Shown: positions 17,586-17,945 of the stretch, piece by piece
How positions within the stretch are numbered: position 1 is the first letter of the stretch
How the letters are laid out: each line of letters starts with the position of its first letter
Assembly: GCF_057098645.1 (NCBI RefSeq)
Contig: NZ_CM169472.1
Direction: 5' to 3' (one strand)
DNA: 64,000 bases
Program-made: the position numbers and the translations under genes
Notes under the pieces: model-generated
What the model was told of the DNA's origin: nothing
Databases searched by the model: none
The model's input: only the letters and a program-made list of their open reading frames with translations

Positions 17586-17945
17586 ACGACTGCCGGATGC
17601 GGCGTGAACGCCTTATCCGGCCTACGGATGGCGCGAGAATTTGTAGGCCTGATAAGACGCGTTAGCGTCGCATCAGGCATCTGCGCACGACTGCCGGATG
17701 CGGCGTGAACGCCTTGTCCGGCCTACGGGTGGCGTGAGAATTTGTAGGCCTGATAAGACGCGCAAGCGTCGCATCAGGCATCTGCACACGACTGCCGGAT
17801 GCGGCGTAAACGCCTTATCCGGCCTACGGATGGCGCGGGAATTTGTAGGCCTGATAAGACGCGCAAGCGTCGCATCAGGCATCTGCGCACGACTGCCGGA
17901 TGCGGTAAACGTCTTGTCCGGCCTACATTTCGCCCGTAGGCAGTC
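17586..17945. repeat. Tandem BIME/REP array, about 3.5 copies of a 101-bp unit
   Basis: The unit acgactgccggatgcggcgtgaacgccttatccggcctacggatggcgcgagaatttgtaggcctgataagacgcg..agcgtcgcatcaggcatctgcgc recurs at 17586, 17687, 17788 and 17888 with few substitutions. Confidence 0.85.

Follow-up and report, generated by a model that had tools for sequence, protein, structure and literature searches.

A copy-number-variable BIME-2 array of alternating Y and Z2 REPs between mhpE and mhpT in Escherichia coli

The stretch of DNA analysed here, 64,000 nucleotides in length and referred to as the window, carries the co-directional genes mhpE and mhpT, which are separated by a spacer of 476 bp. As an earlier note made from the letters of the window had proposed, this spacer holds a tandem array of REP sequences, which occupies 343 of the 476 bp. 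Over positions 17000-18500, the 1,501 bases compared, the window and E. coli O145 str. RM9872 (NZ_CP028379.1) show 100% identity, and the gene coordinates of RM9872 map across the whole window at a constant offset. The locus comprises the following features:

16530..17543, + strand: mhpE, upstream of the array, 4-hydroxy-2-oxovalerate aldolase (as annotated by RefSeq for RM9872, and in the ORF list)
17584..17926, no strand assigned: the whole BIME-2 array, three complete 101-bp units and a terminal Y REP, that is seven REPs (Tandem Repeats Finder and lag identity)
18020..19231, + strand: mhpT, downstream of the array, 3-hydroxyphenylpropionate transporter (as annotated by RefSeq for RM9872)

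The array begins 40 nt behind the stop codon of mhpE, with the first REP at a distance of 48 nt from that codon, and ends 93 nt ahead of the mhpT start. The RefSeq record of RM9872 annotates nothing in the spacer, and the annotation of NC_000913.3 gives no repeat feature for it. A scan for intrinsic terminators, defined as a GC-rich hairpin followed by a T run, found none in the spacer and produced its only match inside mhpT at 18054, and a consensus scan found no sigma-70 promoter in the spacer; weak or non-consensus signals of either kind would escape these scans. Transcripts of the mhp genes running from mhpE into the array would be compatible with this absence of terminator and promoter signals. 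On the far side of the array, the longest ORF of mhpT opens at the ATG at 17975 (418 aa), and the RefSeq start is the ATG at 18020 (403 aa), which has GAGG before it at 18007-18010; the upstream extension from 17975 to 18019 is probably untranslated. Rfam matches to the CPEB3 ribozyme and to sR5 inside mhpT were far below threshold and were dismissed as chance.

The repeat was detected by several procedures. Tandem Repeats Finder places one array at 17584-17926 and gives it a period of 101, 3.4 copies, 93% matches, 0% indels and a score of 595, and a gapless repeat finder recovers three copies of 119 nt with spacings of 101 and 101 and identities of 95-97%. The dot-plot that had been suggested as a check was run as a lag self-comparison, in which the array is 87% identical to itself at a lag of 101 and 82% at a lag of 202, the median over lags 1-249 being 26%. 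In 300 random pieces of 343 nt drawn from the window, the identity at each piece's best lag had a mean of 36% and a maximum of 49%. The tandem periodicity of 101 bp that the earlier note had described is therefore confirmed by both repeat finders and by the lag analysis. The note had counted about 3.5 copies, for which Tandem Repeats Finder gives 3.4, and had placed the array at 17586-17945, of which the left end is correct to within 2 nt but the right end lies 19 nt too far, since positions 17927-17945 are unique sequence that is present in every allele sequenced.

Resolved into its parts, the array reads from left to right as listed below, the left edge, the linker variants and the last linker having been read directly from the sequence:

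17584..17591, + strand: left edge GCACGACT, a partial 14-nt head-to-head linker represented by its last 8 nt
17592..17625, + strand: Y-type REP no. 1, no mismatch to the Y consensus, RNA hairpin of -21.3 kcal/mol
17626..17642, + strand: 17-nt tail-to-tail linker GGATGGCGCGAGAATTT, between CTAC and GTAG
17643..17678, - strand: Z2-type REP no. 1, loop TAAC, no mismatch to the Z2 pattern, -21.9 kcal/mol, IS621 target ATCAGGCCTAC present
17679..17692, + strand: 14-nt head-to-head linker ATCTGCGCACGACT, different from the REP325/naRNA4 linker
17693..17726, + strand: Y-type REP no. 2, one mismatch to the consensus, hairpin of -20.3 kcal/mol
17727..17743, + strand: 17-nt linker, variant GGGTGGCGTGAGAATTT
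17744..17779, - strand: Z2-type REP no. 2, loop TTGC, no mismatch, -21.9 kcal/mol, IS621 target present
17780..17793, + strand: 14-nt linker, variant ATCTGCACACGACT
17794..17827, + strand: Y-type REP no. 3, an exact match to the reference Y sequence TGCCGGATGCGGCGTAAACGCCTTATCCGGCCTAC once the T at 17793 is included, hairpin of -21.3 kcal/mol
17828..17844, + strand: 17-nt linker, variant GGATGGCGCGGGAATTT
17845..17880, - strand: Z2-type REP no. 3, no mismatch, -21.9 kcal/mol, IS621 target present
17881..17894, + strand: 14-nt linker ATCTGCGCACGACT
17895..17926, + strand: terminal Y-type REP no. 4, degenerate through a 2-nt deletion next to the loop, hairpin of -14.5 kcal/mol

One unit is made up of a Y REP of 34 nt, a linker of 17 nt, a Z2 REP of 36 nt and a linker of 14 nt, which sum to 101. 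The variants of the 17-nt linker GGATGGCGCGAGAATTT differ from it by one or two bases. When the array was searched with the Y consensus, allowing up to three mismatches, three matches were obtained on the + strand, at 17592, 17693 and 17794, with 0-1 mismatches, and the Z2 pattern gave three on the - strand, at 17643, 17744 and 17845, with 0 mismatches each; dinucleotide-preserving shuffles of the window yielded 0.00 matches for Y and Z2 alike. Y REP no. 4 was detected by means of its 11-nt core and tail. Compared with the reference sequences of Durrant et al. (PMC11208160), which are TGCCGGATGCGGCGTAAACGCCTTATCCGGCCTAC for Y and GCCTGATGCGACGCTGGCGCGTCTTATCAGGCCTACG for Z2, positions 17793-17827 of the window are an exact match to the former. 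The orientation alternates strictly, with every Y on the + strand and every Z2 on the - strand, and CTAC ends all seven REPs on their own strand. The view that each 101-bp unit holds two REPs of opposite orientation is thereby upheld, the pair consisting of a Y on the + strand and an inverted Z2.

The hairpin energies listed above were obtained by folding the sense-strand RNA (-21.3, -20.3 and -21.3 kcal/mol for Y REPs nos. 1-3 and -21.9 kcal/mol for each Z2), and in the predicted structures six REPs, Y nos. 1-3 and Z2 nos. 1-3, share an outer stem of 7-8 bp, an internal mismatch and an inner stem of 4-5 bp. Y REP no. 4 folds otherwise, with a 10-bp outer stem and a 3-nt bulge at -14.5 kcal/mol. 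Because Y and Z2 are related and inverted, neighbours can alternatively form one long hairpin, which for an adjacent Y/Z2 pair is predicted to have about 40 bp and -54 to -56 kcal/mol. Folded as a single RNA, the whole array and spacer reach -220.9 kcal/mol (z = -10.9). The sole polymorphism within the Z2 copies, TTGC versus TAAC, is located in the loop.

The earlier note had also pointed to such arrays as hotspots of copy-number variation and had recommended a comparison with other E. coli genomes. A query of 500 nt consisting only of the two flanks of the array matched 4,922 of 5,426 complete E. coli genomes, from which 60 were sampled at even steps down the match ranking; 58 of these span both flanks, so that the frequencies given here are approximate. 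The sampled genomes fall into five span classes, which lie whole 101-bp steps apart save for indels of 2-4 bp, and the structure was confirmed by sequence in one example genome per class:

Single Y REP (one REP, no unit): span 538-546 bp, 34 of 58 genomes
One unit and Y (three REPs): span 641-643 bp, 8 of 58 genomes
Two units and Y (five REPs): span 744 bp, 3 of 58 genomes
Three units and Y (seven REPs): span 843 bp, 2 of 58 genomes, the allele of the window and one other
Four units and Y (nine REPs): span 944 bp, 11 of 58 genomes, several K-12 lineage strains among them

Variation in copy number was thus found as anticipated, with 1, 3, 5, 7 or 9 REPs among the 58 sampled E. coli genomes, and the Y REP is kept in all 58 of these genomes with both flanks. 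Since genomes with an equal flank score (99.0%, 897 bits) fall into four of the classes, the comparison suggests that the number of units at the mhpE-mhpT site changes frequently. Furthermore, identical unit variants recur across alleles: unit 3 of the window equals unit 2 of ET846, and units 3 and 4 of K-12 equal units 3 and 4 of ET846. Such sharing is the pattern that unequal recombination or slippage would give by gain and loss of whole units. The K-12 allele (Lin et al., 2011; PMC3161906) has the same site, the same flanks and the same unit structure as the array of the window; strain MGY, a derivative of MG1655, has a 577-bp spacer with a 4-unit array and KL53 likewise has four units and Y, so that both of these K-12 lineage strains carry nine REPs, whereas the window has three units and Y in a different mosaic of variants. 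The other 504 of the 5,426 genomes match the spacer flanks on neither side, a few genomes match on the mhpT side only, and among the latter are engineered K-12 deletion strains with unrelated genes directly adjacent to mhpT.

The BIME-2 classification is due to Gilson, Bachellier and Hofnung, and catalogues of REP/BIME-2 arrays in E. coli date back to the early 1990s; BIME-1 elements are also named RIP/RIB. A REP is an imperfect palindrome of 30-40 nt with a GTAG/CTAC foot and a mismatch in the stem, and a BIME-2 combines Y and Z2 REPs in tandem copies joined by short linkers (Ton-Hoang et al., PMC3333891), holding "two to twelve Y and Z2" (Chiapello et al., PMC1187871). The REPs of the array are palindromes of 30-40 nt with the CTAC foot, and six of the seven have the stem-mismatch fold. 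All structural features of a BIME-2 are found as well, namely Y together with Z2, their alternation, seven REPs within the range of 2-12, linkers of 14 and 17 nt, an extragenic position and polymorphism in copy number, and no structural difference from a BIME-2 was noted. The array is a BIME-2, a non-coding element in which four Y-type REPs on the + strand alternate with three inverted Z2-type REPs through linkers of 17 and 14 nt. A BIME-1 consists of a single pair of y and z1 with a long L linker, often with an IHF site (Ton-Hoang et al., PMC3333891). The array resembles a BIME-1 in its intergenic position and its REPs of inverted orientation, but BIME-1 was rejected, as the second REP is Z2 and not Z1, the linkers have 14 or 17 nt instead of a long L, the arrangement is tandem and not single-copy, and the IHF consensus WATCAANNNNTTR does not occur within 17584-17926. 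The lack of an IHF consensus and of a Z1 REP also means that the remark on IHF binding in the earlier note does not apply to an array of this type, since it is the long L linker in BIME-1 that binds IHF (Ton-Hoang et al., PMC3333891; PMC2817692). A CRISPR-like array was likewise dismissed: the supposed "spacers" are repeated as well, the repeats form inverted pairs, and the annotation of the window includes no cas genes.

A mechanical list of ORFs contains several entries within the array, among them 17432..17680 (-), 17673..17882 (-) and 17698..18165 (+), and one or more of these might in principle encode real small proteins. The ORFs do exist as open frames, and in a few genomes a "hypothetical protein" has been called over the array by PGAP, in ET846 (2105-2443 of the stretch examined) and in three others. 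The ET846 feature, however, is flagged as frameshifted, incomplete (partial) and pseudo, and the spacer of RM9872 is unannotated; the PGAP feature over the array is an annotation artefact of the repeat. Four of the array ORFs, scanned against Pfam, returned only sub-threshold chance matches. The peptide start MPDATL(T/A)RLIRPTNS opens several overlapping minus-strand ORFs in different frames, because the 101-bp period is not divisible by 3 (101 mod 3 = 2) and the same unit is read in a new frame in each copy. In addition, the ORFs overlap one another on both strands, 17432..17680 is antisense to the end of mhpE, and 17698..18165 runs into the first part of mhpT in another frame. About 59% of the sampled genomes have no complete unit and so cannot carry the array ORFs at all. 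With no Pfam cut-off reached and no frame conserved across alleles, a protein-coding reading was rejected; the chance that any of these ORFs encodes a real small protein is close to nil, and the opinion of the earlier note that they are artefacts of the repeat agrees with each of these observations, namely the missing Pfam family, the shift of frame per unit, the overlap on both strands, the absence from single-REP alleles and the lack of annotation in RM9872.

A different kind of product is raised by Rfam, whose naRNA4 model (RF02564) matches the - strand of the array three times above its gathering score of 59.5, with 90.2, 79.7 and 69.6 bits. The array could accordingly be taken for a set of naRNA4-like sRNA genes that would release discrete RNAs about 77 nt long, each containing a Y and a Z2 hairpin; together with HU, these RNAs would link DNA cruciforms and compact the nucleoid. 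The naRNA4 family was established from REP325, which is also a Y/Z2 BIME-2 array, located between yjdM and yjdN in E. coli K-12; about 80% of REPs are transcribed, and REP325 RNA binds HU and condenses DNA (Qian et al., PMC4550694). The 17-nt tail-to-tail linker, moreover, is identical to that of a REP325-like locus in Escherichia sp. E1V33, and the Y and Z2 modules are the same. Nevertheless, mhpE-mhpT is another locus than REP325, and the orientation of the model is here antisense to mhpE and mhpT, a direction for which the consensus scan found no promoter, while the + (sense) strand scores only 59.7, 57.9 and 46.2 bits. The RF02564 alignments agree nearly perfectly across the two REP hairpins and diverge in the intervening linker, the head-to-head linker being GUCGUGYGCAGAU in the array and AAcGGUGCCGACU in the model. 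The score thus stems from the shared REP modules, and the model would be expected to match many BIME-2 loci. A nucleoid role specific to this array is also made unlikely by the single REP of most strains. An origin of the signal from naRNA4-like genes therefore appears very improbable, and we read the score as a sign of paralogy between BIME-2 loci and not as evidence of an sRNA gene between mhpE and mhpT.

How the 17-nt linker is distributed was addressed by a scan for the exact pattern in one genome per species, which, as an exact match was required, says little on taxonomic spread. The pattern occurred in Escherichia sp. E1V33 only, at three loci. One is the mhpE-mhpT site, at which the contig terminates within the array; another is the REP325-like locus, whose head-to-head linker matches the naRNA4 consensus; the third is a further BIME-2 locus. 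Judging from these loci, the linker is a motif common to several BIME-2 elements. In RM9872, a 51-nt probe centred on the linker of the first unit matches the mhpE-mhpT locus only, at the sensitivity of megablast. The linker-centred probe also matches a region annotated as "yahH: protein YahH" in strain USDA-ARS-USMARC-51688, which suggests that yahH, the name of a small K-12 gene, overlies another BIME-2 with the same linker and that yahH itself may be a REP-derived ORF.

The Z2 REPs of the array are also targets of a mobile element. In strain STW0522-31 (NZ_AP022409.1), IS621, an IS110-family element with a bridge-RNA recombinase, lies inside a Z2 REP of the mhpE-mhpT array (1749-2729 of the stretch examined), a position that corresponds to the Z2 REPs at 17643, 17744 and 17845 of the window. 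Its junctions read GTAG, then the element up to a closing AG, then GCCTGATAAG, which is what the natural target ATCAGGCCTAC with its CT core would give, both target and core being those reported for IS621 (PMC11208160). The exact target is present in all three Z2 REPs of the window, so the IS621 bridge recombinase would find three perfect natural targets in the array.

As to its origin, the array may have arisen from a single Y REP, the commonest state, by expansion and contraction in whole 101-bp steps, for which unequal homologous recombination or replication slippage between units would be the likely routes. By analogy with other loci, the REP-associated transposase TnpA-REP possibly assists such rearrangement, as it cleaves and recombines BIMEs in vitro and as BIME-2 copy number is known to vary at a locus (PMC3333891). 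Functions can be proposed on the same footing, from what is described for the family. If the mhpABCDFE transcript enters the spacer, the hairpins would be expected to block 3'-to-5' exonucleases and to attenuate in part, in a Rho-dependent manner, read-through into mhpT; Rho-dependent attenuation, Pol I binding and gyrase binding are all cited for the family in PMC2817692. On DNA, the Y REPs would be preferred binding and cleavage sites of DNA gyrase and the array a local topological barrier, in line with Topo-seq data in which gyrase cleavage is enriched in BIME-2 with a preference for Y REPs (PMC6379681); the supplementary files examined from that study make no mention of mhpE or mhpT. Finally, the array might act as a fragile or recombinogenic site and as a landing pad for REP-specific insertion sequences. 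A BIME-2 in the co-directional mhpE-mhpT spacer, with this proposed origin and with functions as known from the literature on the family, is in our judgement very probably the correct joint explanation of the locus.

An effect on translation can be weighed from the distance to mhpE. REPs located about 15 nt or less from a stop codon can reportedly stall translation, an observation attributed to Liang, Rudd and Deutscher in 2015. As the first REP sits 48 nt past the stop codon of mhpE, stalling by it is unlikely.

It is conceivable that such repeat DNA is selectively neutral, left behind by the spread of REPs and by local slippage, and that neither the expression of mhp or mhpT nor DNA topology is measurably altered by it. 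Alleles have anywhere between 0 and 4 units and no state is conserved, the commonest allele is a single REP, unit variants are shuffled among alleles, and the insertion of IS621 into the array is tolerated. Selection on the length of the array is probably weak or absent, because a single REP suffices in most strains, and with about 59% of the sampled genomes in the single-REP state, any effect of a multi-unit array must be dispensable. Complete neutrality, on the other hand, sits uneasily with the retention of the Y REP in every sampled genome that has both flanks, with the preservation of the hairpin stems and the confinement of the Z2 polymorphism (TTGC/TAAC) to the loop, and with the effects of BIME-2 elements on gyrase and transcription documented at other loci (PMC6379681; PMC2817692). 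These points argue for some effect, without amounting to proof at mhpE-mhpT, and we regard full neutrality as possible but somewhat unlikely.

For a BIME-2 that acts on the transcript, a bolder version of the proposal would make the number of units (0-4) a heritable, fast-changing dial that sets both the read-through of 3HPP-induced mhpABCDFE transcription to mhpT and the stability of the upstream mRNA. It would fit the spacer without terminator or consensus promoter, the very stable RNA structure and the allele series, and if it were true, strains with 1, 3, 5, 7 and 9 REPs would differ in the ratio of catabolic enzyme to transporter. We put it forward as a speculation that is probably wrong in this form.

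Neither the element nor its site is new. Lin et al. (2011; PMC3161906) located 16 of 40 sequenced lac-amplification junctions in REP sequences and reported that junctions of lac amplifications and inversions fall in the mhpE-mhpT REP array; because the junctions at this array are on record there, the element is already known, a textbook BIME-2 at an already described locus. It therefore carries little weight as a discovery, and its practical use lies in annotation and assembly. ORFs within the array should not be called as genes, and Rfam naRNA4 matches at BIME-2 loci should be taken to reflect shared REP modules and no demonstrated small RNA. Differences between strains in the length of the mhpE-mhpT spacer are to be understood as unit-number polymorphism and not as indels of obscure origin. 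Short-read assemblies can break at the array, as illustrated by the draft of Escherichia sp. E1V33, in which the contig stretch of NZ_RHJI01000028.1 stops in the first Z2 REP of the mhpE-mhpT array (11076-11147) and the assembly seems to break at the repeat.

Elsewhere in the window, further REP tails were seen at 2046-2057 (cynX/lacA), 19921-19932 (yaiL/fghA) and 55445-55456, and an inverted Z/Y pair of REPs lies at 57496-57559 between mak and araJ; these four sites show neither tandem amplification nor a naRNA4 score. The window also holds two groups of genes that, to our knowledge, are absent from K-12 at the corresponding positions: a GlxA-family regulator and an MBL-fold hydrolase at 8385-10134, between lacI and mhpR, and a cluster comprising fbpC/ABC-transporter genes, a uhpC-like receptor and a two-component system at 22502-30294, between frmR and tauA.
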